The position numbers and the translations under genes are program-made. The notes under the pieces were generated by a model. That model saw only the letters and a program-made list of their open reading frames with translations, was not told the DNA's origin and searched no databases. From Escherichia coli (GTDB lineage: Bacteria; Pseudomonadota; Gammaproteobacteria; Enterobacterales; Enterobacteriaceae), in assembly GCF_011045215.1 (NCBI RefSeq), contig NZ_CP049201.1: a stretch of DNA of 64,000 nucleotides; one strand, given 5' to 3'. The stretch's first letter is position 1. Every line of letters begins with the position of its first letter. Positions 11,633-41,732 of the stretch are shown here, one piece after another.

Positions 11633-12130
11633 ATGAGCAGTTCGTTTCAGAATGAAATCCCGAAAGCAAGGGTAAATCTGAAATTAGACCTACATACAGG
11701 TGGTGGGCAGAAGAAAGTGGAGCTTCCGCTCAAACTGCTGGTTGCCGGTGATTTCAGTAACGGACAGGAAGAGCGTCCACTGTCAGAGCGTGTAAAAACG
11801 GATATTAATAAAAACAATTTTAATGATGTTCTGGCAGATATCTCCCCGTCTGTGCGTCTGAATGTGGAGAACACGCTTGCCGGTGATGGCTCTGAAGAGA
11901 GCATCAGCCTGACGTTCCGCAATATGAACGATTTCACGCCAGAGCAGGTCGCCCGACAGATTCCCCGTCTTAAAGCCATGCTGGCCATGCGCAGCCTTCT
12001 GCGGGACCTGAAAGCCAATCTGCTGGATAACGTGACTTTCCGTAAAGAGCTGGAAAAAATTCTGCGTGACCCGGCACTGAGCCAGACGCTGCGTGATGAA
12101 TTGCGTGCACTGGTGCCGGAAAAGGCGTGA
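11633..12130 (+). CDS. tssB: T6SS contractile sheath small subunit TssB (VipA)
   Basis: 165 aa from the ATG preceded by AGGAG (the ORF-track start at 11609 lacks an RBS); first gene of the sheath pair, directly followed by tssC. Confidence 0.88.
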   Translation: MSSSFQNEIPKARVNLKLDLHTGGGQKKVELPLKLLVAGDFSNGQEERPLSERVKTDINKNNFNDVLADISPSVRLNVENTLAGDGSEESISLTFRNMNDFTPEQVARQIPRLKAMLAMRSLLRDLKANLLDNVTFRKELEKILRDPALSQTLRDELRALVPEKA

Positions 12131-12151
12131 TTTAACGGATTACGAGAGAAA

Positions 12152-13696
12152 ATGCTGATGTCTGTACAGAAAGAAAAGAACGTCGCAGAGAGTGTGGTAT
12201 CTGAAACGCATACCGGCGACAGCGTATATGCTTCCCTGTTTGAAAAAATTAACCTGAATCCGGTATCTGCCCTGAGTGCACTGGATATTTGGCAGGATCC
12301 ACAGGCCATGTCAGAAGCGTCTGCAGATGAACGCCTGACGGCAGGGATGCAGGTGTTTATGGAGTGTCTGGCAAAAGCCGGTACGCAGGTGGAAAAACTC
12401 GATAAAGCGCTGATTGACCATCATATTGCAGAGCTTGATTATCAGATCAGCCGTCAGCTGGATGCTGTGCTTCATCATCCGGAATTTCAGAAAGTTGAAT
12501 CCCTGTGGCGGGGCGTGAAGTCTCTGGTGGATAAAACGGACTTCCGCCGTAATGTGAAAATTGAGCTGCTGGATCTGTCCAAAGACGATCTGCGTCAGGA
12601 TTTTGAGGATGCGCCGGAAATTATTCAGAGCGGTCTTTATCTGCAGACCTATGTGGCTGAGTATGACACGCCGGGTGGTGAGCCCATTGCCGCCCTGGTT
12701 TCGGCCTGGGAGTTTGATGCATCTGCACAGGACGTGGCACTGCTGAAAAATATTTCCCGGGTGGCGGCATCCGCGCATATGCCGTTTATTGGTTCAGTTG
12801 GCCCGGCGTTCTTCCAGAAAGAAACCATGGAAGAAGTGGCTGCCATCAAGGATATTGGCAACCACTTTGAACGTGCCGAGTACATCAAGTGGAATACTTT
12901 CCGTGAGACGGACGATGCCCGCTATATTGGTCTGGTGATGCCCCGTGTACTGGGACGCCTGCCGTATGGCCCGGATACCGTACCTGTCCGCAGCTTTAAC
13001 TATGTTGAAGAGGTGAAAGGACCGGATCACCATAAATATCTCTGGACGAACGCGTCTTTTGCCTTTGCCGCCAACATGGTGCGTAGTTTTGTCACCAATG
13101 GCTGGTGTGTTCAGATCCGCGGGCCTCAGGCCGGTGGTGCGGTGCAGGATTTGCCAATCCATCTGTATGATCTGGGAACCGGTAATCAGGTCAAAATACC
13201 GTCAGAGGTGATGATCCCGGAAACGCGGGAGTTTGAATTCGCTAATCTGGGCTTTATTTCTCTCTCTTACTACAAGAACCGGGATTATGCCTGCTTCTTC
13301 TCCGCCAACTCCGCCCAGAAACCGGCGCTGTACGATACGCCGGATGCGACAGCGAACAGCCGTATTAATGCCCGTCTTCCCTATATCTTCCTGCTGTCCC
13401 GCATTGCGCATTACCTGAAGATCATTCAGCGGGAAAATATCGGTACCACCAAAGATCGCCGTCTGCTTGAGCTGGAGCTGAATAACTGGATCCGGGGACT
13501 GGTGACGGAGATGACCGATCCGGGCGATGAGCTGCAGGCCTCGCATCCGCTGCGTGACGGAAAAGTGGTGGTGGAAGATATCGAAGACAATCCGGGATTC
13601 TTCCGCGTGAAACTCTACGCCGTACCGCATTTCCAGGTGGAAGGTATGGATGTCAGCCTGTCACTGGTTTCGCAGATGCCGAAGGCAAAAGCGTAA
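12152..13696 (+). CDS. tssC: T6SS contractile sheath large subunit TssC (VipB)
   Basis: 514 aa, size and position after tssB; conserved core such as FIGSVGPAFF, PRVLGRLPYG. Confidence 0.9.
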   Translation: MLMSVQKEKNVAESVVSETHTGDSVYASLFEKINLNPVSALSALDIWQDPQAMSEASADERLTAGMQVFMECLAKAGTQVEKLDKALIDHHIAELDYQISRQLDAVLHHPEFQKVESLWRGVKSLVDKTDFRRNVKIELLDLSKDDLRQDFEDAPEIIQSGLYLQTYVAEYDTPGGEPIAALVSAWEFDASAQDVALLKNISRVAASAHMPFIGSVGPAFFQKETMEEVAAIKDIGNHFERAEYIKWNTFRETDDARYIGLVMPRVLGRLPYGPDTVPVRSFNYVEEVKGPDHHKYLWTNASFAFAANMVRSFVTNGWCVQIRGPQAGGAVQDLPIHLYDLGTGNQVKIPSEVMIPETREFEFANLGFISLSYYKNRDYACFFSANSAQKPALYDTPDATANSRINARLPYIFLLSRIAHYLKIIQRENIGTTKDRRLLELELNNWIRGLVTEMTDPGDELQASHPLRDGKVVVEDIEDNPGFFRVKLYAVPHFQVEGMDVSLSLVSQMPKAKA

Positions 13697-13711
13697 GGCA
13701 GGCGTCGGGAA

Positions 13712-15049
13712 ATGAAGATTTATCGTCCACTGTGGGAAGACGGGGCTTTTCTGATGCCCCAGCAGTTTCAGCAGCAGGCTGCCTGGGATGTTCATCTGGC
13801 AGACAGCGTTGCCAGAATGGGGCTGGCGCATCCATGGGGCGTGGTGGCTGCAGAGTTTGATGACTCTCTGTTACCTCTTTCACGGTTGAATGCCACCCGT
13901 CTGATTGTTCGTTTCCCGGACGGAACGCTTATTGATACGGAACGCGCGGATAATCTGCCTCCGGTCTGTGATTTATCGACGGTTTCTGATCGTTCCCTGG
14001 TGGATATTGTGCTGGCACTACCGTTACTGAATGCTAACGGTGGCAACCTTGATAATGGCAGTGAGAGCGAGCGTCCGCGTCGCTGGAAATCAGAAAGGGT
14101 GAATGTGCAGGAGCTGGCCGGGCATGAGCAAAGCGAAGTGGCGGTATTGCGGCATAACCTGACTCTGCGCATGGCTCATCAGGAAAATGCTGCCTGGCTG
14201 ACCTGTCCCGTTACCCGTCTTGTTCGTGATGCACAGGGACAGTGGTGCAGGGACCCGCGTTTTATTCCCCCTCTGCTGACGCTGTCTGCCAGTCCTTCGC
14301 TGATGACTGAACTTGCGGAGTTGCTTCATCACCTGCAGGCGCGTCGCCAGCGACTGATGTCCATGCGTCGGGAGAACAATGCCCGTCTTGCGGATTTTGC
14401 AGTGGCGGACGTGTCGTTGTTCTGGTTGCTGAATGCCCTGAACAGTGCGGAGCCTGTTCTGAAAGAGTTGCTTGACATGCCTTACCGCCACCCGGAACTG
14501 TTGTACAGGGAGCTTGCCCGACTGGCAGGCTCCCTGCTCACATTCTCGCTTGAGCATAATGTGGATGCGGTTCCGGCATACCATCATGAAACACCTGAAA
14601 ATGTTTTCCCACCTTTGCTTTCTTTGCTGAACCAGCTGCTGGAGGCAAGCCTGCCTTCCCGTGTGGTCTTCATTGAACTGAAACAAAATGGTGTGATGTG
14701 GGAGGGGGCATTACATGATGCGCGTCTGCGCGAAGGGGCTGATTTCTGGCTTTCAGTGCGCTCTTCCATGCCCGGGCATGAACTGCAGACGAAGTTTCCG
14801 CAGCTATGCAAAGCCGGAAGCCCCGATGATGTGTCTGAGGTGGTGAATGTGGCGCTGAGCGGGGTCATTATCCGTCCGGTTACGCATGTACCGGCGGCCA
14901 TTCCACTCCGGCTGGAAAACCAGTATTTCGCGCTGGATTTAAGTACGGATGCGGCCCGGGCGATGCTGGACGCGGGGCGTTGTACTTTCTACACCCCGGC
15001 ATCGCTGGGGGATGTGAAACTGGAACTTTTTGCGGTGCTGCGGACATGA
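13712..15049 (+). CDS. tssK: T6SS baseplate protein TssK
   Basis: 445 aa; N-terminal MKIYRPLWEDGAFLMPQQFQQQ typical of TssK; position between tssC and tssL. Confidence 0.85.
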   Translation: MKIYRPLWEDGAFLMPQQFQQQAAWDVHLADSVARMGLAHPWGVVAAEFDDSLLPLSRLNATRLIVRFPDGTLIDTERADNLPPVCDLSTVSDRSLVDIVLALPLLNANGGNLDNGSESERPRRWKSERVNVQELAGHEQSEVAVLRHNLTLRMAHQENAAWLTCPVTRLVRDAQGQWCRDPRFIPPLLTLSASPSLMTELAELLHHLQARRQRLMSMRRENNARLADFAVADVSLFWLLNALNSAEPVLKELLDMPYRHPELLYRELARLAGSLLTFSLEHNVDAVPAYHHETPENVFPPLLSLLNQLLEASLPSRVVFIELKQNGVMWEGALHDARLREGADFWLSVRSSMPGHELQTKFPQLCKAGSPDDVSEVVNVALSGVIIRPVTHVPAAIPLRLENQYFALDLSTDAARAMLDAGRCTFYTPASLGDVKLELFAVLRT

Positions 15050-15699
15050 ATAAACCTGTTATCTCCCGGGCTGAACAGATTTTTTATCCCGGCTGGCTGA
15101 TGGTCAGCCAGCTGCGCAGCGGGCAACCGGTTGAGGATGGTAAGGCCCTGTATCGCCGTGCCTGTCAGCTGGTGAAACAGGCGCGTGAAGAGCTGGCCGA
15201 AGCAGGATTCAGTCAGGAAAACAGTGACACCATGTTGTATGCCTTCTGTGCCCTGCTGGACGAGAGTGTGCTGAACCGCGAAAAAACAGATGATGGCTGG
15301 CACACCTGGCAGCAGGACCCGCTGCAGGCTCATTTTTTTGGTACGCTCAATGCCGGTGAAGAGCTCTGGGAGCGTATTCGTGAGCAACTGAAATTACCAG
15401 CGCCGGATGTGGCGGTACTGACATGCCTCTGCCGTACGCTTCAGCTCGGTTTTACCGGTCAGTACCGGTCGCAGGATGATGAGCGTCGCGAAGATGTAAT
15501 ACGCGCACTGACAGCGCGTGTTCCTGCATTTACTTTCGCACAGGATGCGCCGGTGGTGGTGCGTGCACCGGGTTACCGTGCTGGCAGAACGATGTACTGG
15601 TTGTCATGGGTGGCGGGTATTGTGACGCTGGCTGGTCTCTGGTGTGTGCTTTCTTCTGTGCTTGCAGACCAGGTGGCACGGCTTACCGGACAGGGATAA
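15046..15699 (+). CDS. tssL: T6SS membrane-complex protein TssL (DotU-like)
   Basis: ATG overlaps the tssK stop (ATGA); about 217 aa with a single C-terminal TM helix, as in DotU/TssL. Confidence 0.8.
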   Translation: MNKPVISRAEQIFYPGWLMVSQLRSGQPVEDGKALYRRACQLVKQAREELAEAGFSQENSDTMLYAFCALLDESVLNREKTDDGWHTWQQDPLQAHFFGTLNAGEELWERIREQLKLPAPDVAVLTCLCRTLQLGFTGQYRSQDDERREDVIRALTARVPAFTFAQDAPVVVRAPGYRAGRTMYWLSWVAGIVTLAGLWCVLSSVLADQVARLTGQG

Positions 15700-15701
15700 C
15701 C

Positions 15702-17432
15702 ATGCACGTACGTTCCCGTCTCTGGCTGACAATACTGAGTCTGTTCCTGACACTGTGGCTGATTTCGGGATTCCTGCCGCTGTCTGTAGTAAACCAGATA
15801 ATACTGACCCTGGTTTCAGTTGTGGCGGCGGGGCTTGTGCTGTGGTACCAGTGGCGTTGTCTGTCTTCCCGTCGTGATATCCCGGAGAAGGCCGGCGATG
15901 ACGGTCTGCCGCCTGAGTATTTTCAGGGACATGTGCTGCTTGTTGCCGGAAACTCAGATGCGTGGTTCGAATCCGGTCAGGCATACCGGGAAACAGCATC
16001 GGGATGGTATCTTCGTGTGGATACGCCGGAGCAGATGAGAATACTGGCAGAACGGTTGTCGTATAACCGTCCGGCCCTGTGTGGCCAGGTCGTGGTCATG
16101 CTGGGACTTTTACCGGAGCAGCATACCTCAGATGAAGCTTTTCTGCCGTGGTTGCGGAACTGGCAGCGTGCAGTCATGCAGTGCCGGCAGTGGCTGAATA
16201 CCACGCCACCGGTGCTGGTGACATTGATGGTTTCAGAGCCGTCACCACAAAACACATCCTTAAATAAGCACTCTGCACACTGGTTTACACTGACACCGGA
16301 CCTGCCGGGAATGCATATACGCCTGACAGAAGCCGGAGCCATTCCGGCAGAGGAATGGCTGCTGGCGTGTGATGCAGCGTCCAGGCTCCGGTGCGTCAGT
16401 GAACTGTTATGGCTGAATGCCATGTTGTCCTGGTACAACAGGGTTACTGATGCCCTGACAGATATTTGCCGGCAGGAGCACTTTTATTTCCGGCCGGTTG
16501 CCGTTGGATTCTGTCTGACGTCGGTTGCGGCCCACCCCGGTAATCTCTGGCAACAACAACTGACGTCCCTCACTGCACTGCCACCGTCTGCCGGCGTGTC
16601 ATCACAGGCACTGCCGTTGCCGGATATTCTGCTGTCCGGTATCCCCCGTCATCGTGGACTCAGTCACTGGCACAGACTTTGTCGCCAGACAGGGGCGATT
16701 GTCGGTGTTTTTCTTCTGCTGGCTATACTGGCGTCTTTTATGAATAACCAGCGACTGGTTCGCAGTGTGGGGGAGCACCTGACGGCCTGGCACCGGATGA
16801 GCGGATATTCATCTGAATCGAAAACAACAGCACTGCAACGTCTTCAGGCTGACAACCAGTTACTGAACGACTGGCAGCAACGTGGTGTGCCACAGCGTTA
16901 CGGACTGGGATTGTATCAGGGAATGTGGCTGATATCGCCGGTTGAGCGAGCGATTAGTGAGCGGGTTGCACCACTGCCTCCCCGTCCGGTGATACAGAAA
17001 GTTACTCAGACGCCGAAAACGGTTCGCCTTAACAGCCTGGCGCTGTTTGATGCCGGTAAATGGACGCTGAAGCCGGGCGCCACAAAATGGCTGGTGAATG
17101 CCCTGGTGGATATTAAGGCAAAAGCAGGCTGGTTGATTGTGGTCAGTGGCCACACGGACAATACCGGTGACCCGCAGCGCAACCAGGCTCTGTCCCTGAA
17201 GCGTGCAGAGGCCGTTCGCGACTGGATGCGGGATACCGGCGATATTCCTCAAAGTTGTTTTGCCGTACAGGGATACGGTGAAAGCCGCCCTGTGGCCCCG
17301 AATGACACGGCGGAAGGCCGTGCGCGTAACCGCCGTGTTGAAATCAGTCTGGTACCGCAGGCCGATGCCTGTCGTCTGCCGGACGCTTCCCCTGCGCCGG
17401 AAGAGGGCGCATCAGAAAACATAACGGAGTAA
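15702..17432 (+). CDS. tagL: TagL-like inner-membrane protein with C-terminal OmpA-family peptidoglycan-binding domain
   Basis: N-terminal TM helices, C-terminal segment VVSGHTDNTGDPQRNQALSLKRAEAVRDWM...NRRVEI is an OmpA/MotB-type PG-binding signature; start at the ATG giving MHVRSRLWL. Confidence 0.75.
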   Translation: MHVRSRLWLTILSLFLTLWLISGFLPLSVVNQIILTLVSVVAAGLVLWYQWRCLSSRRDIPEKAGDDGLPPEYFQGHVLLVAGNSDAWFESGQAYRETASGWYLRVDTPEQMRILAERLSYNRPALCGQVVVMLGLLPEQHTSDEAFLPWLRNWQRAVMQCRQWLNTTPPVLVTLMVSEPSPQNTSLNKHSAHWFTLTPDLPGMHIRLTEAGAIPAEEWLLACDAASRLRCVSELLWLNAMLSWYNRVTDALTDICRQEHFYFRPVAVGFCLTSVAAHPGNLWQQQLTSLTALPPSAGVSSQALPLPDILLSGIPRHRGLSHWHRLCRQTGAIVGVFLLLAILASFMNNQRLVRSVGEHLTAWHRMSGYSSESKTTALQRLQADNQLLNDWQQRGVPQRYGLGLYQGMWLISPVERAISERVAPLPPRPVIQKVTQTPKTVRLNSLALFDAGKWTLKPGATKWLVNALVDIKAKAGWLIVVSGHTDNTGDPQRNQALSLKRAEAVRDWMRDTGDIPQSCFAVQGYGESRPVAPNDTAEGRARNRRVEISLVPQADACRLPDASPAPEEGASENITE

Positions 17433-17437
17433 TTTTT

Positions 17438-17929
17438 ATGGCAATTCCAGTTTATCTGTGGCTGAAAGATGATGGCGGTGCAGATATCAAAGGGTCCGTG
17501 GATGTTCAGGACCGTGAGGGCAGCATTGAGGTGGTGGCTCAGGAGCACTGCCTCTACATCCCGACGGATAACAACACCGGTAAGCTGACCGGTACCCGTA
17601 TTCACACACCGTTCCTGTTTACCAAGGAAATTGATTCTTCCAGCCCGTACCTTTACAAGGCCGTGACCACCGGGCAGACCCTGAAGTCTGCTGAATTTAA
17701 GTGGTACAAAATCAATGACGCCGGTCAGGAGGTGGAGTACTTCAATACGAAGCTTGAGAACGTGAAGGTGGTGAAGGTTAATCCGGTCATGCACGACATC
17801 AAGAATCCCACCTACGAGAAGCATAACCACCTTGAACAGGTGGAACTGCGCTACGAGAAAATCACCTGGACCTACAAGGACGGCAACATCATTCATTCCG
17901 ACGCATGGAGTGAACGTACCACCGCGTAA
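17438..17929 (+). CDS. hcp: T6SS tube protein Hcp (TssD)
   Basis: 163 aa; MAIPVYLWLKDDGGADIKGSVDV start is the classic Hcp N-terminus; GGAG RBS. Confidence 0.9.
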   Translation: MAIPVYLWLKDDGGADIKGSVDVQDREGSIEVVAQEHCLYIPTDNNTGKLTGTRIHTPFLFTKEIDSSSPYLYKAVTTGQTLKSAEFKWYKINDAGQEVEYFNTKLENVKVVKVNPVMHDIKNPTYEKHNHLEQVELRYEKITWTYKDGNIIHSDAWSERTTA

Positions 17930-17936
17930 TTCTCCC

Positions 17937-17975
17937 GGACGGGCAGGGCATCCTGTCCGTCATTTTTATTTTTTC
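17937..17975 (+). terminator. Intrinsic terminator-like hairpin plus T-run after hcp
   Basis: GGACGGGCAGG-GCAT-CCTGTCCGTC stem followed by ATTTTTATTTTTT. Confidence 0.55.
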
Positions 17976-18097
17976 TTCAGCATCTGTTGGCGGGTGCTGA
18001 AGAAAAAATTCTCAATCCTGAACACAGACCTGATGCGCCTGGGTTACGGCGAAGGGCGGTAGCGTGCCTGACGGTCTCCTGACAGTGAGTGAATAAC

Positions 18098-21637: not shown

Positions 21638-21715
21638 TTCTCTCTGAAAATAAAGCTTAACGGTCATCATTATATAATTGCAGTTCAATACCGGTACAGA
21701 CATGGAGTTAACAAT

Positions 21716-24238
21716 ATGAGTCTGACAGATACACTTTCAAAAACTATCTCTGTTTCCCTGAATCGTTACCATTTAATTATTCCCTCCTGCCCGTCACCAC
21801 TGGATGTTGAGCATTTCAGCGGCAGGGAGGAGATGAGTCAGACCTATTATTACATCATCAATTTTACCAGTACTGACAACGACCTGGATGCCGGGCTGCT
21901 GCTGCGTAAATCAGCCACATTTACAATGGGTACGGGAGGGCTTAAGGAGCAGGTGAGCCAGAAAGTAGTACATGGTGTCATTACAGATTTTCGCCGTATA
22001 TCGGGCTCCGCCGACCAGGCAAAATACCAGGTGATACTGGAACCATTTATTAAACTACTGGACAGGCAGCATCGTTCTCACCGATTTTTCGTTAACAAAT
22101 CGGTGCCGGAGGTGGTGACAGAGGTTCTCCAGGAGCACGGTCTGAAAGGCTGGGAGTTTGAGTTCCGTCTCAAAAAAACGTATCCGAAGCGTGAACAGAT
22201 TAACCAGTATCAGGAAAGTGACCTGCAATTTATTCAGCGTTTGCTGGCTGAAGTGGGGATTTTTTATTTTTTCACCCTGCAACCGGACACGCAGACGGAA
22301 GTGGTGCATTTTGGTGACAGCCAGGCAGCGCTGACGTTTGATAAGACGCTGGCGATAAACAGTCCGTCCGGAATGAATGATAACAGAGCGGATTCAGTGT
22401 GGGGGCTGAATGTGACGCACAATGTGGCAGAGGCTAGTGTCACCACAAAGGCTTATAACCATCGTGAAGCACAATATCTGTTGCAGTCCGCCCCGGCAGA
22501 CATGACGCATGGTGATGGTGACGGAATTAACTATGGTGAGGTGTACCACTACCATTTCCGTCATCTGGAACGGGGGGATAAAATCGACCCGGTGCCGGAG
22601 ACGGCCAATTTTTATGCCCGCCTTGGTCATGAACGCTATCTGGCGGAGCAGGTACGGATAACCGGTAACAGTACAGACGCCACGCTGGCACCTGCTCAGG
22701 TTCTGACTATCACCGACAGTCTTCCGCCGACGTTGCCTGCGCTGCTGCGCAATCCGGTGTTGCTTACCTGTGTCGGTTTTTCTGCAAGTCGCAAGGATGC
22801 CCTGCAGGTTGTACTGAAGGGCGTTCCTTACAGTGAAGTTATCTGCTGGCGTCCTCCTTTACTGCCCCGTCCGAAAGTTACCGGTACCATGACGGCCCGT
22901 GTGACCAGTGCAAAAGAAGGGGATATCTACGCCTGGCAGGATGCATCAGGTATGTACCGGGTGAAATTTGATGCTGACCGTGATGATAAAAATCCAGGAC
23001 AGGAAAGTATGCCGGTACGTCTGGCCAAACCCTACAGTGGTGATGCTTATGGTTTTCATTTTCCGCTGATTCAGGGAACGGAAGTGGCCATTGCTTTTGA
23101 GGAAGGTGATCCGGATCGTCCCTATATTGCGCATGCCCTGCATGATTCACGTCATGTTGATCACGTTACCGATAAGAACGGTACGCGCAATGTTATCCGT
23201 ACGCCAGCAAATAACAAATTGCGAATGGAGGATAAGCGCGGCGAGGAGCATATCAAGCTCAGTACCGAGTATGGCGGTAAGACACAACTTAATCTTGGCC
23301 ATAACGTTGATGAGGAGCGGGTGGTTAGAGGAGAAGGTGCAGAGTTGCGCACTGATGATTGGGTGGCAATTCGGGGGGGGAAAGGGATTTTATTAAGTGC
23401 CGACGCTCAACCAAATGCTGATGGTGTAATGCTTGATATGCATAAAGCTATACAGCAGTTGGAACATGCTCTTGCTCTTGCAAAAAGCCTCGGCAAAGCA
23501 GCTGAGACAGCAAAAGCAACTTCGGCAGATTCAGATAGCCAGTCTATTTTGAAAAGTGCGCTGTCCGGGTTGCAAAAACCAGGGATATTAGCACATTCAC
23601 CTATGGGAATTGGTGTGGTAACTCCAGAAGCAGTACGGATTGCTTCTGGAAATCAGAGTGTAGGAATAGTTTCTGGTCGTAATACGGATATTACTGCAGC
23701 TCAGTCAGTAACTGTTGCGGCATCGAATTCTGTCAGCCTATTTGCGCAAAGTGCGGGGATGCAACTTTTTGCAGGGCAGGGCAAAGTGGATGTGCAGGCT
23801 CAGGGAGATGCGCTGAATCTCCAGGCACTAAAGGACGTCACAGTTACTAGTAATCGTGGTAGTGTAACGTTAAGCGCTAGTAAGGAGTTAACTCTTGTTT
23901 GTAATGGTGCTTACATCAAGATCAGTGGCGGAAATATCGAACTTGGATGTCCAGGTAATATTCTGCTTAAATCTGCGAATGTGCAAAAAATGAGAGCGGC
24001 AAACTTAAATCTATCTCCTCAGGTGTTGCCTAAAGGATTCAAGGGAGGATTTACAATAACTAATCAGGATACGGGGGAAGTGATGCCGTACATCCTTTAT
24101 AAGATAACTACCGCAGAAGGTGATGTTTATTCAGGTACAACAGATAAACTTGGCAATACCATGCCAATTTATACAGCGTCGCCATCATTAATGAAAATTG
24201 AGTTTCCTCTAAGCAGTGAACAAGGAGGGGCATTATGA
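21716..24238 (+). CDS. vgrG: T6SS spike protein VgrG (TssI) with C-terminal extension
   Basis: 840 aa, longer than a minimal VgrG; gp27/gp5-like N-terminal region then repeat-rich beta-prism region and an extra C-terminal tail of about 100 aa. Confidence 0.9.
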   Translation: MSLTDTLSKTISVSLNRYHLIIPSCPSPLDVEHFSGREEMSQTYYYIINFTSTDNDLDAGLLLRKSATFTMGTGGLKEQVSQKVVHGVITDFRRISGSADQAKYQVILEPFIKLLDRQHRSHRFFVNKSVPEVVTEVLQEHGLKGWEFEFRLKKTYPKREQINQYQESDLQFIQRLLAEVGIFYFFTLQPDTQTEVVHFGDSQAALTFDKTLAINSPSGMNDNRADSVWGLNVTHNVAEASVTTKAYNHREAQYLLQSAPADMTHGDGDGINYGEVYHYHFRHLERGDKIDPVPETANFYARLGHERYLAEQVRITGNSTDATLAPAQVLTITDSLPPTLPALLRNPVLLTCVGFSASRKDALQVVLKGVPYSEVICWRPPLLPRPKVTGTMTARVTSAKEGDIYAWQDASGMYRVKFDADRDDKNPGQESMPVRLAKPYSGDAYGFHFPLIQGTEVAIAFEEGDPDRPYIAHALHDSRHVDHVTDKNGTRNVIRTPANNKLRMEDKRGEEHIKLSTEYGGKTQLNLGHNVDEERVVRGEGAELRTDDWVAIRGGKGILLSADAQPNADGVMLDMHKAIQQLEHALALAKSLGKAAETAKATSADSDSQSILKSALSGLQKPGILAHSPMGIGVVTPEAVRIASGNQSVGIVSGRNTDITAAQSVTVAASNSVSLFAQSAGMQLFAGQGKVDVQAQGDALNLQALKDVTVTSNRGSVTLSASKELTLVCNGAYIKISGGNIELGCPGNILLKSANVQKMRAANLNLSPQVLPKGFKGGFTITNQDTGEVMPYILYKITTAEGDVYSGTTDKLGNTMPIYTASPSLMKIEFPLSSEQGGAL

Positions 24239-26890: not shown

Positions 26891-27493
26891 TTATTTATAA
26901 TTAATTTCTGTATTTTTAGATTGAATGTTTTATGTATCTGTGAATGCGTGGTGTTCCGAATCGGATTTTGCGTTATTATTTCTAATGTCGTAATTAAAGA
27001 GAAAGAGTTTAGCTAAAACGATTGTTTTCATTCTAAACATAGAGTAAATATGAAGTGTTTTTTATCAAGTCTACGAACTCTCAGTATTATGTTTTTTGTG
27101 CCGATTATATTTTTCATCTTTCAGTACGAATGCTGGAGTAAGTGATAGTTTTGATTTGCTTATAATTGGGGGATTGTTTCTCATTATCTTGGTTAGCAAA
27201 TCCATTTATTATAGAAGTAATCAAGATAAATAATTTATTATATTTATAATTGTCCCTGGTGTCATTTTTATTGTTCATTTCTTTCTTAGAAGTTAAAGGC
27301 ATTATTGTGAAGGTTGGGAAGGGAAAATGTTAATAATGTTTTATGGCTTGGGATATTGGATGTGAGAGTCATGCTTCATTTAGCATGATGTTAACTCAAA
27401 ATATCGACATTCATTAGCGTAAAAATTAAAATAATGAATATCTCTGATTAATTGTTGTCTTAATTTATATCGTCTTATAAAGTTGAGGTGTGG

Positions 27494-27760: not shown

Positions 27761-27763
27761 AAC

Positions 27764-28912
27764 ATGGGATGGAGCAGAACAAAATCATTATCAACAGAAT
27801 TACCTCATAAACCATCAATGATGTTGTGGTTTATGACAGGGGCATTTATGGCTGTTGTTGGTGCTCTGTTGTTTATTATCCGGGCATCAGGATATGTGAA
27901 AGCATTAAATAATTTCAGTATCTGGTGGCTTGCATTGACTCCTCCGGGGAGCTGGTTTTTCCTGTTTTGCCTGCGACACTGGCAGTGGAGCAACCAGATG
28001 GATGAACATTTGTTTCTTAAAAAAGAGGGGGAGTATGCTCAGAAACAGTGGGAATCCTGGGCCGAAAGGTATCTTGTTATTACTGCCAGTTGTGTTTATT
28101 TGCCTGATAAAATAACGGTAGCTACTCTTTGTGATGAATTGCCTCTGCAGTATGGCCTTGTAAAGAAAATAGATTATCTTTCTGACAGTGGGCATAAGGT
28201 TGAAGCCTCTTTACGTGTCTTGCTTAGGGAGATAACGGATAAATTTTGTCAGTTACCTGCCGCTCTCCCTGTAAATGTGACGCTGATAACCGATCAGCCT
28301 GATTCTGAAATCAGATCTGCTTTTGTTTCTGCATGGGAAGCGTTATTTCCCCAACGCGTCGTTCCTGACAATATTGAGGTTACTCCCGACTTTTCCATGG
28401 GGTGGGGTGATGAGCGTCTGAAACAACCAGTGCTGACTGTGGATTTGATACTGGTAATACAGCTTAATGGGGGAAATGCATACTCTGACGGACTGGCTGC
28501 ACTTTTGTTGACCAGCGATGATGTTGCGCAAAAATATAATCTGCCGCATTCAGCCCGTCTGCTACGCCCGATGTCGCTGGATATCAACAAGTTTAATGAT
28601 GAATTCACACTTTTCCTTGAAACCCAGACAGCTGCCTGTCGTACCGCTCGTGTACTGGGGGACTGTTATCACTGGGAAAAGATTGCTGCACCGCTGATGA
28701 CTATTGGAAACCAGTATGGTGCCGGATGGGAACCGTCCGGACGTATGTTACTGGAAAAATGGTGCGGTATCCCGGGACCTGCTGCTCCGTGGCTGCTTAC
28801 TGCTCTGGCAGCCGATCTGGTCTGTCTTGGTAATGATTCTCTCCTGACTTTATTCTCATCCGGAGAAGAACATTTTATCAGTACTGTTACATCAGGAAAC
28901 CAGAATGAATAA
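27764..28912 (+). CDS. T6SS-associated inner-membrane protein of unknown function
   Basis: 382 aa with two N-terminal TM helices; 3 bp after PAAR and overlapping the tssM start. Confidence 0.55.
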   Translation: MGWSRTKSLSTELPHKPSMMLWFMTGAFMAVVGALLFIIRASGYVKALNNFSIWWLALTPPGSWFFLFCLRHWQWSNQMDEHLFLKKEGEYAQKQWESWAERYLVITASCVYLPDKITVATLCDELPLQYGLVKKIDYLSDSGHKVEASLRVLLREITDKFCQLPAALPVNVTLITDQPDSEIRSAFVSAWEALFPQRVVPDNIEVTPDFSMGWGDERLKQPVLTVDLILVIQLNGGNAYSDGLAALLLTSDDVAQKYNLPHSARLLRPMSLDINKFNDEFTLFLETQTAACRTARVLGDCYHWEKIAAPLMTIGNQYGAGWEPSGRMLLEKWCGIPGPAAPWLLTALAADLVCLGNDSLLTLFSSGEEHFISTVTSGNQNE

Positions 28913-32294: not shown

Positions 32295-33892
32295 TGGCTT
32301 CCATTCATTCGCTCCTCAGTGCATGCCAGACGACACCCCGGGATGTGGCTGAACCGGCTCAGGTGCGTATTGTGCTGTGGGATAAATGGCTTGCTCCCGT
32401 GACGCCAGATAATCCCGCAGGTGATGATGCGGGGTACGATGATGATTTTCAGCAGATGCGTGAAGAGGTCAATAAATTCTCCGGAGCCGATGCCGGAATA
32501 GTCAGCCAGCTTGCAGAAAAATTACTGACCACCAGAACCAAAGATATCCGGGTGGCGACCTGGTATATCTGGGCCCGTCTGCGGCAGGATGGTGAAAAAG
32601 GTCTGGCCGACGGTCTGGAGCTGCTGACCGGTTTGTTGCAGCGTTTTGGAGAGCACCTGCATCCACAACGGTCACGGGCCAGGAAGGCGGCGCTGGAGTG
32701 GTTATGCAGCGCCCGCATACTGGACAGTCTGTCTCTGTATCCGGAGGTGGTGAAGGCGGATACCCTGCGCATTGCCGGGGCGCTGTGGCTGGCAGAACAG
32801 ACCTTTACGGATGAGGCTTCCGCCCCGGTGCTGAACGGGTTATATCAGGCACTTGAAAATCGCCTGATGAAGGCCGGTGGTGTTGATGCAGTGGTGCCTC
32901 AGGAGGCTGCCGCGCCGGCACCGACGGTAACATCCGGCAGCGTCACGGCACTATCTGCCATCACCTCCGGACAGGAACTGCTGTCACAGGCTCGTGTTCT
33001 GGCAAAATATCTGCGTGACCAGCCTGAGGGCTGGCTGGCGGCTCATCGGCTGATGAAAAGCGTCCGGCATGACACGCTGCATCAGTTACCGCCGTTATCT
33101 GCTGATGGACGGACCCGTATTGCCCCACCGGGGCCGGACCGGCGTGCGTCACTGAAACGGTTGTATCTGCAGCAGAACTGGTTGTCACTACTTGAGCAGT
33201 GTGACGATATGTTTGCCCGGGGAGCCAGTCATCTGTGGCTGGACCTGCAGTGGTATATTCATCAGGCGCTGTTGCAGACCGGAAAAGAAAATTATGCTGC
33301 CATTATTCAGTATGACCTGAAAGGATTGCTTCTGCGCCTGCCGGGGCTTGAGACACTGGCTTTTAACGACGGCATGCCGTTTGCCGATGACGTGACGCTG
33401 AGCTGGATACAGCAGCAGGTGATGGAGTGTGGTGAACGCTGGGCGGAAGAACTTTCTGTAACGATAACGGCAGCTCCCGGAGATAACGACATTTTATCTC
33501 TTGAGCCGGAAGCCCTGCAGATTGCGGATAATGAAGGAACAGAAGCCGCTTTAAGCTGGTTACAGGCACGTCCCGGTATTCAGTCTGACCGCAGCAACTG
33601 GCTACTGCGCCTGTTGATGGCCCGTGTTGCCGAACAGACTGGAAAAAATGACCTTGCCCTGCATCTGCTTGCGGAGCTGGATGAACGTGCAACCCGGCTG
33701 ACCCTGTCACAATGGGAACCTGAACTGGTATTTGAAGTAAAAGCCCGCCGCCTGAAACTGTTGCGTATGAAGTCCGCAAAAACTGAAAGTGACAGAGTGC
33801 GTCTGCAACCTGATATGGAACATCTTCTTGCCGGGCTTATTGCTATTGATGCTGCCAGAGCTGCTGTGTTGTGCAATCCGGGAAGTTCATGA
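32294..33892 (+). CDS. tssA: T6SS protein TssA (ImpA N-terminal domain)
   Basis: 532 aa; N-terminal VTPDNPAGDDAGYDDDFQQMREEVNK is the ImpA_N signature. Confidence 0.8.
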   Translation: MASIHSLLSACQTTPRDVAEPAQVRIVLWDKWLAPVTPDNPAGDDAGYDDDFQQMREEVNKFSGADAGIVSQLAEKLLTTRTKDIRVATWYIWARLRQDGEKGLADGLELLTGLLQRFGEHLHPQRSRARKAALEWLCSARILDSLSLYPEVVKADTLRIAGALWLAEQTFTDEASAPVLNGLYQALENRLMKAGGVDAVVPQEAAAPAPTVTSGSVTALSAITSGQELLSQARVLAKYLRDQPEGWLAAHRLMKSVRHDTLHQLPPLSADGRTRIAPPGPDRRASLKRLYLQQNWLSLLEQCDDMFARGASHLWLDLQWYIHQALLQTGKENYAAIIQYDLKGLLLRLPGLETLAFNDGMPFADDVTLSWIQQQVMECGERWAEELSVTITAAPGDNDILSLEPEALQIADNEGTEAALSWLQARPGIQSDRSNWLLRLLMARVAEQTGKNDLALHLLAELDERATRLTLSQWEPELVFEVKARRLKLLRMKSAKTESDRVRLQPDMEHLLAGLIAIDAARAAVLCNPGSS

Positions 33893-34025
33893 GATGTCTG
33901 AATTATATTCATGTGTAATCTGATTAATGAAATCCGGCCTGCAGTTCAGTTCGGACGATTGTTTGAAGTATGGTTGAAGTCAGAGCGCGAGTCTCCGGAA
34001 CAGTTAGCTTTATTCTGAGAAGATA

Positions 34026-35789
34026 ATGGACGATTTAACCCTGCGTTATTTTGACGCTGAAATGCGTTATCTGCGTGAAGCCGGAAAGGCGTTTGCACAG
34101 GCTCATCCCGATCGGGCGGCGATGCTGGATCTCGATAAAGCGGGTACGCCTGATCCCTGCGTGGAGCGCCTGTTTGAAGGTTTCGCCTTTTCCATGGGAC
34201 GACTGCGCCAGAAAATCGACGATGATTTGCCGGAGCTTACTGAAAGTCTGGTCAGTATGCTCTGGCCTCATTACCTGCGTACTATCCCGTCCCTGTCGGT
34301 GGTGGCACTGACTCCCCGGTTATCCGTCATGAAAATGGCTGAAACCGTACCAGCCGGACTGGAAGTGACTTCCCGCCCTGTTGGCCCCGGAAATACAGTC
34401 TGTCGTTACCGTACCACCCGGGCCATACCACTGAATCCACTGGCAGTGGAGAAGGTTGTTATGACGACGGAGCCGGACGGGCGTTCAGTGTTGAAAATAG
34501 GTTTTGCCTGCAGTGAACTGGCTGACTGGTCTCAGGTCGATTTGCATCGTCTGAGCCTGTATCTGGCAGCAGAAGCCCCGGTCAGCAGCACCCTTCATCT
34601 GATGATGACAAAGCGTCTGGCTGCGCTGTATCTGAGGCTGCCGGGAAATGATGAGCGGATCCGCATTGACGGATGGTTTTCTCCCGGTGGTTTTGCAGAA
34701 GAAGATCGGCTGTGGCCGAAAGGTGACAGTGCTTTCAGTGGGTATCAGTTATTGCTGGAATATTTCACCTTTCGGGAAAAGTTTATGTTTGTTCATCTGA
34801 ACGGACTGGAGAATGTTTCTCTGCCGGCAGGTATTTCCGGATTTGATCTTGAGGTGGTGCTGAGTCAGCCCTGGCCGGCAGATTTACCTGTGACAGACGA
34901 TGCCCTGTGTCTGCATTGTGTGCCGGTGATTAACCTTTTTACGCTTGAAGCCGATCCACTCATCATCAATGGGCTGGAGAGCGAATACCTGCTGCGCCCG
35001 AAGCGTCTGCAGGATGGGTATACGGAGATATATTCCGTGGATGCGGTGACGGGCTCCGGGCGAACCGGCAGTGCAGAGTACGTGCCTTTTACCAGCTTCC
35101 GTCACCGTGGGGGAATGCTGCGCCATGATGCACCCGAACGTTATTATCATACCCGGGTGAAGCGGGGTGTCACGGGGATGTATGACACATGGCTTATCCT
35201 TGGCGGTCAGCGGTGGGAGGCGGATCGGATGCCGGAGCGGGAAACGCTTTCATTACGTATTACAGGTACCAATGGTCAGCTTCCCCGTCGTGCGTTGCAG
35301 AGTACGCTGCTTGATCGGTGTGAACAGGTACTGCAGACCCCGGTCAGTGTACGTAATCTTTGTAAACCCACGCTACCGGTTTATCCGCCGACAGAAGATC
35401 GTTTTCACTGGCGGGTGATGAGTCATCTGGGGACAGGATTTCTTAACATGCTGAGCAGTGCGGAAGTGCTGCGTGGCACGCTGGCGCTTTATAACTGGCG
35501 GGACGATGAACTTAATCACCGTCGGCTTGATGCCATTCTGGCTGTACAGCATCATCGTATTCAGCGTTTTGAAAAGGGTTTTCTGCTCCGGGGGCTTGAT
35601 GTGGAGGTAACTCTTGATGGCAACGGGTTTGCCGGAGAGGGAGATATTCACCTGTTTGGCGAAATGCTCAACCGTTTCCTGGCCCTGTACGCCGATATGA
35701 ATCAGTTCAATCAGCTCACACTGATTGTTCAGCCTGAAGGAAAATGCATCCGGTGGAAAGAAAATCACAATCCGCGCCTGCCCGGTTAA
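34026..35789 (+). CDS. tssF: T6SS baseplate protein TssF
   Basis: 587 aa; MDDLTLRYFDAEMRYLREAGKAFAQAHPDRAAMLDL start typical of TssF. Confidence 0.85.
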   Translation: MDDLTLRYFDAEMRYLREAGKAFAQAHPDRAAMLDLDKAGTPDPCVERLFEGFAFSMGRLRQKIDDDLPELTESLVSMLWPHYLRTIPSLSVVALTPRLSVMKMAETVPAGLEVTSRPVGPGNTVCRYRTTRAIPLNPLAVEKVVMTTEPDGRSVLKIGFACSELADWSQVDLHRLSLYLAAEAPVSSTLHLMMTKRLAALYLRLPGNDERIRIDGWFSPGGFAEEDRLWPKGDSAFSGYQLLLEYFTFREKFMFVHLNGLENVSLPAGISGFDLEVVLSQPWPADLPVTDDALCLHCVPVINLFTLEADPLIINGLESEYLLRPKRLQDGYTEIYSVDAVTGSGRTGSAEYVPFTSFRHRGGMLRHDAPERYYHTRVKRGVTGMYDTWLILGGQRWEADRMPERETLSLRITGTNGQLPRRALQSTLLDRCEQVLQTPVSVRNLCKPTLPVYPPTEDRFHWRVMSHLGTGFLNMLSSAEVLRGTLALYNWRDDELNHRRLDAILAVQHHRIQRFEKGFLLRGLDVEVTLDGNGFAGEGDIHLFGEMLNRFLALYADMNQFNQLTLIVQPEGKCIRWKENHNPRLPG

Positions 35790-36844
35790 TTACCCGTTAC
35801 CGGAAACAGCTTCCGTATATTAATTTTTACCGCTTCTGTCAGTTACTGGAACAAAGCCAGCCAGACCAGCCTCCCATTGGCAGTGGCTGGCAGGCCCGTC
35901 AGGAAGCGGTTCGCTTTTGTCCATACCCGGGAATGGGGTTTCCTGCGAGTGAAATAAAAGACGCTGTAATTCCTGAAGAATCCCATCTGCCACCCACTGT
36001 ACATGTGACGTTTATGGGACTTTACGGGGTCACGTCTCCGTTGCCGGCACACTATATCAGTGATATTGCACAGCAGCGGGAAGGCCATGAGGCGGCAGCG
36101 GATTTTCTCGATATATTCAGTCATCGTCTGATCACCCAGTATTACCGTATCTGGCGCAAATATTCGTACCCGGCCACCTTTGAGGCGGGAGGGCAGGATA
36201 AAACGTCTCAGTATCTGCTCGGTCTGGCTAGGCTGGGGATCCCCGGATGTGCACAGAATATTGCCACGCCGGTATCGCGTTTTCTGGCGTTATTGCCCCT
36301 GATGTTGTTACCCGGAAGAACAGCTGAAGGGCTGACATCACTGGTAACGCTACTAGCTCCCGGAACACAGGCCCGTGTCTGGCATCATGACCGACGACGG
36401 ATCCCGCTGAAAACACCGCTGACCATGCGTGTTCATCATCCGGTCAGTCTGAAGAGTCGCCCGGTGATGGGCGATCATGCCACGGATGTGAACGGACAGG
36501 TGTTATTACAGCTTTCAACACAGACGGGCAGCGAGGTACAGGGCTGGTTACCGGGCGGGCAGCTGTATTCTGATTTGCTGGCGTTGTTGCACGTTTATCT
36601 GGGAAGCCGTCTGGATGTACGTCTGCAACTTTGTGTTGAGCGTTCACTGTTACCAGATGCCCGGCTCAGTTGCCGGCCGGCAGCCGGTAGTCCGCAACTG
36701 GGGCGCACGGCAGTAATGAGAACACAGGCAAAGATAACGAATTCAGCGGCACGCGTCATGACCATCAGTCTGGGGCGTTATCAGCGGGTTCAGGAACATT
36801 ATCAACGTAAGGAGACTCAGGAAAATGGCGATTATCGCTGGTAA
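35744..36844 (+). CDS. tssG: T6SS baseplate protein TssG
   Basis: 366 aa immediately after tssF with overlap; start codon uncertain. Confidence 0.78.
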   Translation: MHPVERKSQSAPARLITRYRKQLPYINFYRFCQLLEQSQPDQPPIGSGWQARQEAVRFCPYPGMGFPASEIKDAVIPEESHLPPTVHVTFMGLYGVTSPLPAHYISDIAQQREGHEAAADFLDIFSHRLITQYYRIWRKYSYPATFEAGGQDKTSQYLLGLARLGIPGCAQNIATPVSRFLALLPLMLLPGRTAEGLTSLVTLLAPGTQARVWHHDRRRIPLKTPLTMRVHHPVSLKSRPVMGDHATDVNGQVLLQLSTQTGSEVQGWLPGGQLYSDLLALLHVYLGSRLDVRLQLCVERSLLPDARLSCRPAAGSPQLGRTAVMRTQAKITNSAARVMTISLGRYQRVQEHYQRKETQENGDYRW

Positions 36845-37361
36845 GGCTGGTTACGGTCTGATTATTGCGTTGTTTTCCCTGTCGTTATCAGGGTGCGGTC
36901 TGACGCAAAGAGTGGCAGACGGTACGGTATCTGCCACGAAATCCCTGTTTTACCGACAGATAAAAACACTTCACCTGGATATTCGTGCAAGGGAGGCCAT
37001 TAACACCAGTGCTGCCGGTATTCCCCTGTCGGTTGTGGTGCGGATTTATCAGCTTAAAGACAACCGGAATTTTGACAGTGCGGATTATCAGGCGCTTTTT
37101 ACGGGGGACAATGAAATTCTGGCAGGCGATATCATTGCACAGAAAGATGTATGGCTGCAGCCAGGAGGTTCAGTAGCCGTGGATATGCCCCTGGATGATG
37201 CGGCGAAATTTACCGGTGTGGCAGCAATGTTTCTGGAGCCTGACCGGAAGAAAAATACCTGGCGGGTGGTGCTGAGCCGGGATGAGCTTGAGCCGGACAC
37301 GCCCCGTCTTATTGAAGTATCCGGTAACACCCTGACGCTGTTACCGGTGAAGGATAAATAG
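36825..37361 (+). CDS. tssJ: T6SS outer-membrane lipoprotein TssJ
   Basis: 178 aa with lipobox LSLSGCGL; position before tssE. Confidence 0.72.
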   Translation: MAIIAGKAGYGLIIALFSLSLSGCGLTQRVADGTVSATKSLFYRQIKTLHLDIRAREAINTSAAGIPLSVVVRIYQLKDNRNFDSADYQALFTGDNEILAGDIIAQKDVWLQPGGSVAVDMPLDDAAKFTGVAAMFLEPDRKKNTWRVVLSRDELEPDTPRLIEVSGNTLTLLPVKDK

Positions 37362-37363
37362 CG

Positions 37364-37795
37364 ATGCCGCGTCCTTCCCTTTATGAAATTCTCTATGGCA
37401 ATTTCGCTGGCGGGCTGGAGTTAAATCAGGTCGGTGAGGAAGAGCAGGTTATTCTTTCGGTGCTCGATAACATGCAGCGTATTCTGAATACCCGGGCCGG
37501 AAGCCTTAAACATCTGCCGGATTATGGTCTGCCGGATATAACAACCATTCTGCAGGGAATGCCGGGGACGGCGCATCAACTGATGCGCGTGCTTTCAGAT
37601 GTTCTGCTGAAGTATGAGCCACGTATTAAGCGTGTCGACGTGACGATGCAGGAACAGACTCAGCCAGGTGAGTTGCATTATGTCATTGATGCAGAACTTA
37701 AAGATGCAGGGCTGGTTCGCTACGGAACAACATTTATGCCGGAGGGCAGGGTGTTGTTGCGCCATCTGAAACAGCAGCGGTACGTTCAGACGTGA
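37364..37795 (+). CDS. tssE: T6SS baseplate protein TssE (gp25-like)
   Basis: 143 aa; SLYEILYGNF...ILSVLDNMQRILNTRAGS... matches the gp25/TssE family pattern. Confidence 0.8.
   Translation: MPRPSLYEILYGNFAGGLELNQVGEEEQVILSVLDNMQRILNTRAGSLKHLPDYGLPDITTILQGMPGTAHQLMRVLSDVLLKYEPRIKRVDVTMQEQTQPGELHYVIDAELKDAGLVRYGTTFMPEGRVLLRHLKQQRYVQT

Positions 37796-39944: not shown

Positions 39945-41732
<1,788 letters not shown>

Follow-up and report, generated by a model that had tools for sequence, protein, structure and literature searches.

Does the gene cluster of a type VI secretion system (T6SS) on contig NZ_CP049201.1 of Escherichia coli encode a complete machine of the type known as Sci-1 in enteroaggregative E. 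coli (EAEC), and in what respects does it depart from that type? The window (the whole stretch of 64,000 nucleotides analysed here) had previously been described from its letters alone, and this sequence-only reading had placed in it all 13 core genes in a Sci-1-like order, with the appearance of a functional locus. The present comparison indicates that positions 11504-43522 very probably hold a coding-intact E. coli T6SS-1 of the EAEC Sci-1 type, predicted to be antibacterial. The cluster is a new, mosaic representative of a thoroughly studied system, ordinary apart from a few unusual details; and neither the promoter allele, nor the Tla3-like fold of the product of a gene here called x (hyp382), nor a possible second cargo cassette alters that classification.

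The 13 core T6SS families, together with the OmpA-type anchor TagL and a PAAR protein, are all encoded on the plus strand (Pfam, E 1e-16 to 1e-166). TssA-M are complete, including Hcp, VgrG and ClpV, and each scores above its Pfam gathering threshold in an open reading frame (ORF) that is open throughout; a scripted check found no internal stop in any ORF of the cluster. Walker A and B motifs are present in both AAA domains of ClpV, and TssM, TssL and TagL carry the expected membrane segments. The comparison loci were those of strain CFIAFB20180511 (L001), of strain 504239 (L002), whose genes are annotated at NCBI as Tle1-EAEC/Tli1-EAEC, and of the bovine strain C5 (L004). When proteins of the first two were searched against the window by tblastn, the core proteins, TagL, PAAR, hyp213 and hyp382 aligned at full length, with zero gaps and 95-100% amino-acid identity, so that the hidden frameshifts in core genes of which the sequence-only reading had warned are not there. 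Every component that it listed is present in the order given, from 11633 to 37795, and these limits are exact, being respectively the ATG of tssB and the stop codon of tssE. A truncation of tssE was considered, the protein having 143 residues against 153 in CFIAFB20180511 (a difference of 10 codons), and was rejected, the canonical EAEC-type gene also encoding 143 residues. Table 1 lists the features.

Table 1. Features of the T6SS-1 locus, its promoter and its accessory operon, in order of position in the window
Feature	Position	Strand	Evidence and remarks
Psci1-type promoter	11504..11565	+	promoter scan 11/12; aligned with CFIAFB20180511, 504239 and C5
GATC site G3	11504-11507	+	
Promoter -35	11523-11528	+	TTGAGA
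GATC site G2	11536-11539	+	
Promoter -10	11547-11552	+	TATAAT
Fur box F1	11547-11565	+	lies over the -10
GATC-I/G1	11553-11556	+	inside F1; reads GAGC
tssB, sheath small subunit, 165 aa	11633..12130	+	PF05591 (VipA) E 6e-52; 99.4% aa to 504239, no gaps
tssC, sheath large subunit, 514 aa	12152..13696	+	PF05943, PF18945 (VipB); 99.0% aa
tssK, baseplate, 445 aa	13712..15049	+	PF05936 (VasE) E 5e-124; 98.4% aa
tssL, short form, 217 aa	15046..15699	+	PF09850 (DotU); C-terminal transmembrane (TM) helix 184-208; 97.7% aa
tagL, 576 aa	15702..17432	+	PF00691, TIGR03350-like OmpA peptidoglycan-binding domain; three TM segments; 97.4% aa
hcp, tube, 163 aa	17438..17929	+	PF05638, TIGR03344; 100% aa to 504239
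Two strong hairpins after hcp	17938..18009	+	terminator scan; the first, with a U-run, looks like an intrinsic terminator/attenuator
RfaH ops element (ops1), 12 nt	18055..18066	+	GGCGGTAGCGTG; exact match, hcp-clpV intergenic
clpV/tssH, sheath-recycling AAA+ ATPase, 895 aa	18098..20785	+	AAA_2, AAA_lid_9, AAA, ClpB_D2-small; 97.9% aa
hyp213, conserved all-alpha protein, candidate second cargo, 213 aa	20772..21413	+	186 homologues in Enterobacterales
orf83, unannotated, candidate immunity partner of hyp213, 83 aa	21386..21637	+	two hydrophobic stretches; 98.8% aa in CFIAFB20180511 and 504239
vgrG, spike, 840 aa	21716..24238	+	Phage_GPD, Phage_base_V, T6SS_Vgr, DUF2345
Class-3 lipase effector (Tle2-like), 636 aa	24235..26145	+	PF01764 (Lipase_3) E 7.7e-21, residues 272-400; nucleophile elbow GHSLG 340-344
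Immunity lipoprotein (Tli-like), 253 aa	26129..26890	+	signal peptide ending in lipobox FLLGC
AT-rich spacer (28% GC), cassette end	26891..27493		no gene recognised
PAAR spike tip, 88 aa	27494..27760	+	PF05488 E 2e-24
x (hyp382)	27764..28912	+	N-terminal TM helices; non-catalytic thiolase-like domain resembling the T6SS adaptor Tla3
tssM, membrane complex, 1129 aa	28905..32294	+	IcmF-related, IcmF_helical, IcmF_C; 96.8% aa, no gaps
tssA, cap protein, 532 aa	32294..33892	+	ImpA_N, T6SS_VasJ; 97.4% aa
Remnant of deleted 230-aa membrane-protein gene	33894..34018 (~125 bp)	+	first few bases and last ~38 codons left
tssF, baseplate, 587 aa	34026..35789	+	PF05947 E 1e-166; 99.8% aa
tssG, baseplate, 366 aa	35744..36844	+	PF06996; 98.6% aa
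tssJ, outer-membrane lipoprotein, 178 aa	36825..37361	+	PF12790; lipobox LSGC, Cys24
tssE, gp25-like baseplate, 143 aa (canonical length)	37364..37795	+	PF04965, TIGR03357; length as in 504239
YdcA-like gene	37952-38353	+	accessory operon
GIY-YIG/T5orf172 nuclease gene	38509-39752	+	frameshifted near 38862
NERD-UvrD helicase gene	39987-41732	+	accessory operon
hyp101	41798-42103	+	accessory operon
tagA, 454 aa, intact	42158..43522	+	ImpA_N PF06812 (8-109), hydrophobic/TM-like segment 229-253, VasL PF12486 (302-443)

The window is collinear with the locus of strain 504239, in which tle1-EAEC is the cargo gene, at 96.5-97.7% nucleotide and, for each core protein, 95-100% amino-acid identity, and this high identity goes together with Sci-1 synteny that includes a short-form TssL and a separate TagL anchor. 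With EAEC Sci-1 (strains 17-2 and 042, and relatives such as 504239) it shares the order tssB-C-K-L-tagL-hcp-clpV-hyp213-vgrG-(cargo)-PAAR-x-tssM-tssA-tssF-G-J-E followed by an accessory operon ending in tagA, proteins that are 95-100% identical, the same layout of -35, -10, F1, G2 and G3, and the same ops1. It differs in its cargo, a class-3 lipase and a 253-residue lipoprotein with another C-terminal ~300 residues of VgrG in place of Tle1 and two copies of Tli1; in lacking a 230-residue protein gene between tssA and tssF; in a GATC-I site that reads GAGC; and in a frameshifted GIY-YIG gene. Literature searches on EC042_4541, EC042_4532 and EC042_4538 gave nothing. Among 5,426 complete E. coli genomes searched by megablast, many chromosomes contain the region; the best full-length matches (CFIAFB20180511, STEC313 and others) are ~98% identical, and the commoner relatives have Tle1-EAEC/Tli1-EAEC where the window has the lipase. 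The locus is mosaic, with core halves nearest to strain C5 (98.1-98.6%) and a cargo region nearest to the CFIAFB20180511-like group. Some E. coli genomes hold two or three Sci-1-like places.

Compared with the Tle1 type, the exchanged cassette has its breakpoints at 23312 and 27504, and it comprises the last ~300 residues of VgrG, the lipase gene, the immunity gene and the spacer. The identity of VgrG to the EAEC type falls from ~100% to ~50% past residue ~530, the cassette part beginning at nucleotide 23312, and the GC content of the cassette is 35-36% (36% for the lipase gene) against 53-55% for the core. The lipase gene overlaps the vgrG stop by 4 nt and is followed directly by the gene for a lipobox protein, the linkage expected of a Tle2 effector; and the protein combines PF01764 with a GxSxG motif, as in the published domain definition (PMC9846239). 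Its nearest solved relatives are fungal class-3 lipases, with which it aligns through the conserved Asp region (all the sequence matches in the PDB were fungal lipases and esterases). NCBI already has a 100% identical 'lipase family protein [E. coli]', full-length homologues of 38-88% identity occur across Enterobacterales and in Pseudomonas, and in the megablast search 29 of the 5,426 genomes covered 80% or more of the query.

For the immunity protein, no relatives were found among PDB sequences and no Pfam match even at E <= 5, but it shares 28% identity with the candidate immunity protein of a related lipase in C5, and 27-31% (E 1e-32 to 1e-38) with two lipoproteins that flank the lipase homologue of P. 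citronellolis. The sequence-only reading of a vgrG-effector-immunity unit was right: a Lipase_3/GxSxG lipase is followed by a lipoprotein gene that has homologues flanking homologous lipases. In Cronobacter turicensis the same architecture recurs, namely clpV..vgrG-lipase-immunity-PAAR-381aa-tssM. By tblastn nothing significantly similar to Tle1 or Tli1 was found in the window, so that the Tle1/Tli1 cargo typical of Sci-1 is missing, and the spacer at 26891-27493 contains neither a tli1 remnant nor a second (degenerate) immunity copy.

Taken on the literature criteria of a class-3 lipase domain, GxSxG, linkage to vgrG and a secreted immunity protein of ~260-300 residues, the cargo classifies by sequence as a Tle2-like effector/immunity pair. 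It resembles Tle2 (V. cholerae TseL/VC1418, and the predicted Tle2/Tli2 of the P. aeruginosa PAK vgrG7 island) in having PF01764 in the middle of a protein of ~640-700 residues, in its GxSxG motif and in having fungal lipases as nearest relatives, as also in being encoded beside vgrG with a secreted or lipoprotein immunity partner of ~255-300 residues, which is sometimes duplicated. It differs in that no DUF4123 adaptor gene adjoins it, a Tla3-like protein being encoded after PAAR instead, and in that the effector lies inside the main T6SS-1 cluster rather than in an orphan vgrG island. With Tle-ECL/Tli of Enterobacter cloacae and Slp of Serratia it has in common a GxSxG alpha/beta-hydrolase like the fungal neutral lipases, delivery by an enterobacterial T6SS-1, and lipoprotein immunity; but the immunity protein of Tle-ECL bears ankyrin repeats, whereas there are none here or in the Enterobacter, Cronobacter and Pseudomonas homologues, which marks a different effector/immunity family. 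Assignment to that ankyrin-linked family was rejected, since neither the immunity protein nor the neighbours of the homologues have ankyrin repeats or a Pfam match. As context only, the Enterobacter and Cronobacter lipase homologues are followed by a protein of ~256 residues with no Pfam match and no ankyrin repeats. Among the cargo of E. coli T6SS-1, published reviews name Tle1, Tle3 and Tle4 (PMC6730261); the class-3 lipase variant of this slot is less documented, but it is not rare.

The Sci-1-like order claimed by the sequence-only reading holds for the genes that are present, with two amendments: an accessory gene is missing between tssA and tssF, and the unit runs past 37795 to tagA. In the canonical cluster a 693-bp gene for a multi-TM protein of 230 residues lies at the first of these places; it is AT-rich, and its product has no Pfam or NCBIfam match. 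The accessory gene that Sci-1 clusters carry between tssA and tssF is thus absent from the window. The same remnant is called a pseudogene by the Prokaryotic Genome Annotation Pipeline (PGAP) in strains A30 and C5, and of the complete E. coli genomes at least 25 have the short form of the junction (601 bp, found as a single piece) and 42 the long form. The deletion is a common polymorphism and no private lesion. The identification of the deleted gene as tagJ was rejected, the missing protein being AT-rich in its gene, multi-TM and without a Pfam or NCBIfam match. In STEC313 (NZ_CP041433.1) one long and one short form are found, as duplicate T6SS-1 clusters with different cargo on one chromosome.

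Downstream of tssE, the accessory operon ends in a tagA whose domain order, intact reading frame and proximity to T6SS-1 are those expected of this gene, with 86-90% amino-acid identity to three other E. coli loci. In EAEC the genes downstream of tssE, including tagA, form an RfaH-dependent accessory operon (bioRxiv 10.1101/2025.02.08.637259), and TagA raises T6SS efficiency about eight-fold (PMC6730261). Because this operon is present here, the functional locus extends beyond 37795. In RefSeq, PGAP shows the tagA region as three pseudogene fragments (a partial ImpA_N, a hypothetical protein and VasL) at 43727-45091 of the CFIAFB20180511 locus, and likewise in 504239, C5 and a further comparison locus, L003. 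That tagA is a pseudogene, as this call in four genomes would have it, was rejected, a 454-codon ORF being open both in the window and in CFIAFB20180511; the three-fragment annotation is probably a systematic artefact for EAEC-type tagA. The GIY-YIG gene is intact (414 residues) in CFIAFB20180511, 504239, A30 and C5. In C5, at 41951-48295, an IS110 insertion follows the helicase gene and hyp101-tagA is duplicated in tandem, so that the window aligns there twice.

Many gene junctions had been described as overlapping by 1 to 46 nt, and this is correct: as measured, the overlaps are 4, 14, 28, 4, 17, 8, 1 (tssM/tssA), 46 (tssF/tssG) and 20 nt. The tight operon coupling that they had suggested is, however, interrupted after hcp, where two strong hairpins are followed by an ops site for RfaH. 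The hcp-clpV intergenic RNA has a predicted fold of -69.7 kcal/mol (z = -4.8), and the hairpins are conserved in CFIAFB20180511, 504239 and C5. The ops1 element, the hallmark of an RfaH operon, is the only perfect match in the window, where 0.02 would be expected by chance. EAEC has a functional ops1 at the same place between hcp and clpV, and its mutation abolishes assembly (bioRxiv 10.1101/2025.02.08.637259). Between the GIY-YIG and helicase genes, where a second EAEC site, ops2, has been reported, there is a strong hairpin, CGACACCCACG…CGTGGGTGTCG, with a T-run at 39873-39925; beside it, GGTGGTGAT resembles the core of GGTAGNNT without matching it.

The promoter has the same layout as the published EAEC Psci1 (Brunet 2011, PMC3145626; PMC13262931), but a T to G change at 11555 destroys the Dam site GATC-I/G1 that lies within F1. 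The -35, the -10, G2 and G3 of the Psci1 switch are present, and it is thus incomplete by the loss of G1. F1 reads TATAATGATCAAAATTAAA in CFIAFB20180511 and 504239, which matches the Fur consensus at 13 of 19 positions, the same figure that Brunet et al. report; the window and C5 have TATAATGAGC… instead, and the window matches at 12 of 19. An allele census, made with a 33-mer spanning the single-nucleotide polymorphism (SNP) among comparable complete genomes and metagenome contigs, found the T allele in 148 complete genomes and 26 metagenome contigs and the G allele in C5 only (one of 149 genomes and none of the 26 contigs); a 27-mer from the promoter had no match among GTDB species representatives. 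As the G allele is common to the window and C5, it is inherited and no sequencing error.

In EAEC, methylation of GATC-I lowers the affinity of Fur and stabilises the ON state (PMC3145626), and an engineered G1 mutant (GATC to GGTC) formed fewer sheaths, had altered ON/OFF ratios and killed poorly (PMC13262931). The thymine changed here directly contacts Fur, according to the text of Brunet 2011 (PMC3145626). Because the natural change strikes this contact base, adjacent to the engineered one, the direction of its effect is uncertain. It is possible, at rather less than even odds, that the change at 11555 is a natural 'G1-null' allele, in which loss of Dam methylation within F1, combined with an altered Fur-contact base, would reset the ON/OFF ratio. 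The sequence-only judgement that the locus appears functional can be kept for its coding sequence, and has to be qualified for its regulation, where the SNP removes the GATC-I methylation site.

Several observations weigh against the view of the cluster as an intact Sci-1-type system with a Tle2-like cargo. The cluster lacks the 230-residue gene between tssA and tssF; the frameshifted GIY-YIG gene could exert polarity on the helicase gene that follows it and so lower the expression of tagA; and GATC-I/G1 is lost, so that, by analogy with the impairment caused by its engineered loss in EAEC, the locus may be weakly expressed. The weaker, degenerate ops2 of EAEC, sought as GGTAGNNT, was not found at 39753-39986 either here or in four comparators. 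Membership of Tle2 is assigned from domain and motif criteria, without direct comparison to V. cholerae TseL, and the resemblance of x to Tla3 is at the level of the fold only, x having, unlike Tla3, N-terminal membrane helices.

How the SNP and the missing gene should be read admits of other answers. Both may be phenotypically neutral, leaving a system that behaves like EAEC Sci-1 apart from its toxin. EAEC G1 mutants do remain heterogeneous, the key determinants F2 and G3 (PMC13262931) are both present here, and the short tssA-tssF form is frequent; yet G1 mutants were significantly impaired in killing (PMC13262931), and the G allele is very rare (1/149 genomes, 0/26 metagenome contigs), as would be expected of a mildly deleterious or recent variant; neutrality is possible but somewhat unlikely.

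A second answer, which we consider unlikely, is that the T6SS is intact on paper but down-tuned or silenced and decaying: loss of GATC-I would let Fur re-bind and leave most cells OFF, while the lost tssA-tssF gene and the frameshifted gene of the accessory operon would be further erosion within an island ridden with insertion sequences (IS). The destruction of G1 fits this, given the lower sheath numbers and killing that follow its engineered loss in EAEC (PMC13262931), as do the deleted accessory gene, the frameshifted GIY-YIG gene and the IS4-family, IS110, IS66 and IS21 elements that surround the island; and according to the literature T6SS activity is readily lost in experimental evolution through promoter or structural mutations. 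However, the 13 core genes, TagL, PAAR, x and tagA are intact, at 95-100% amino-acid identity and without indels, which argues for continuing purifying selection; the SNP, at a Fur-contact thymine and lowering the Fur-box match from 13/19 to 12/19, could equally weaken repression; and dispensability better explains why 25 or more complete genomes, differing in cargo, have the short tssA-tssF form. Lastly, it is quite improbable that the SNP weakens Fur binding at F1 more than methylation matters, giving a partly de-repressed, more uniformly ON, 'tuned-up' allele: although the substituted T is a consensus Fur-box position in direct contact with the repressor (Brunet 2011, PMC3145626), although Psci1 Fur-box mutants move the population towards ON (PMC13262931) and although the allele, shared by the window and C5, is inherited, the change affects one base of a 19-bp site that matched the consensus at only 13 of 19 positions to begin with, and F2, the main determinant of bistability in EAEC (PMC13262931), is retained, though polymorphic.

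If the cluster is, as we favour, a coding-intact Sci-1-type machine, transcription would start at a Fur-repressed, Dam-modulated sigma70 promoter and be attenuated by the hairpins after hcp, and RfaH loaded at the perfect ops site would carry it through the ~25 kb downstream. By homology to EAEC, TssJ, TssL and TssM would form the envelope complex, anchored to peptidoglycan through TagL; TssE, TssF, TssG and TssK with VgrG-PAAR would make up the baseplate and spike; TssA would prime polymerisation of the Hcp tube and the TssBC sheath, TagA, encoded 4.4 kb downstream, would capture the distal end, and ClpV would recycle the sheath once contracted. The Ser-hydrolase lipase probably travels on the C-terminal extension of VgrG that was swapped in with it and, once set free in the periplasm of the prey, would attack membrane lipids, and the adjacent 253-residue lipoprotein is predicted to protect sister cells. 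Judged from its sequence, the machine should assemble, and its ON/OFF behaviour probably differs from that of EAEC.

Two further genes may bear on cargo. The product of x has the Tla3-like thiolase fold, but no Pfam DUF2875 match and, with a family profile, no sequence match to 8yz3; and the soluble, cytoplasmic character that goes with the DUF2875 signature is missing, x being predicted to have N-terminal membrane helices. Tla3 itself (PA0259; PDB 8yz3), the DUF2875 protein that serves Tle3 as adaptor in the P. aeruginosa H2-T6SS, likewise has a non-catalytic thiolase-like fold, and its gene adjoins tle, tli, vgrG and PAAR genes as x does; the two differ in having no detectable sequence similarity and in that Tla3 is cytoplasmic and soluble whereas x bears membrane helices. 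Since x remains 97.6% identical when the lipase takes the place of Tle1, it shows no obvious tie to one cargo; it may be a loading factor of the Tla3-like kind, anchored in the membrane and shared by E. coli T6SS-1 clusters, and, encoded beside PAAR, it may help to load the spike.

The gap between clpV and vgrG is occupied by hyp213, which has no Pfam or NCBIfam match and for which an all-alpha AlphaFold2 (AF2) model (pLDDT, a model-confidence score, 77) gave no convincing match in a fold search, and by orf83, which overlaps it. The two occur together in the window, CFIAFB20180511 and 504239, and orf83 is lacking where hyp213 is. Their place in A30 and C5 is taken by another small protein and a 'putative T6SS immunity periplasmic lipoprotein', so that the gap is a second variable cargo slot, and hyp213 and orf83 may be an uncharacterised toxin/immunity pair. 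The size of hyp213 and the downstream ORF with two TM segments fit the pore-forming toxin Ssp6 of Serratia; a published HMMER census of complete genomes lists no E. coli, and support for an Ssp6-type link was not found, no Ssp6 sequence having been compared.

The locus lies among mobile elements and defence genes. Two IS copies of 1943 bp, 99.7% identical and inverted with respect to one another (400-2342 on the plus strand and 50915-52857 on the minus strand), each encode a Tn5-like (IS4-family) transposase of 471 residues and bracket ~48.5 kb with the entire T6SS, tagA and several defence genes inside; this repeat takes in ~320 bp of the 5' end of a neighbouring IS21 istA. Such inverted geometry would allow inversion, or movement of the island in the manner of a composite transposon. 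A 171-bp direct repeat (99.4%) at 74-244 and 2339-2508 flanks the left IS, and is far longer than a normal target-site duplication. The left flank (2658-5365 and 6141-9257) contains IS110-family and IS66-family transposase genes, then yfdX, a 5'-truncated porin gene (7281-7919) and a ProQ/FinO-family gene; from 5726 on this content (yfdX, truncated porin, ProQ) is shared with C5, which also has IS66 fragments, and it is consistent with a degraded pathogenicity-island context.

Directly downstream of tagA are genes for an OLD-family AAA and TOPRIM nuclease (44001-45662) and a PerC-family regulator (46182-46511); the content after tagA varies by strain, with Zorya II in CFIAFB20180511 and PAPS reductase/IbrB in A30. 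A type I restriction-modification locus occupies 53656-63182, in which hsdR is followed by hsdM, hsdS and a gene for a SNF2/DEAD helicase of 1093 residues. hsdR is apparently split into 53656-55617 (DUF4145, HSDR_N, ResIII) and 55720-57072 (EcoEI_R_C), and is probably a pseudogene, in line with an earlier hint that neighbouring defence genes are damaged. No RNA family (Rfam, gathering threshold) and no tRNA (tRNA scan) was found in the whole window.

As a T6SS the locus adds little, Sci-1/T6SS-1 being among the best-studied of secretion systems; its value is as a set of natural variants. It displays a modular swap of VgrG C-terminus, lipase and immunity gene within a machine that is otherwise constant (Cronobacter has this cassette and architecture too), and it allows a fold, and hence a testable role, to be assigned to a conserved gene of previously unknown function between PAAR and tssM. 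The promoter allele is a rare natural loss of a Dam site that in EAEC helps to hold the system ON, and it offers a ready-made test of promoter tuning in the wild. If the reading of it as a G1-null allele is true, it would be a natural example of the tuning of T6SS heterogeneity through promoter architecture, which was proposed but left unproven in a 2026 study of EAEC.

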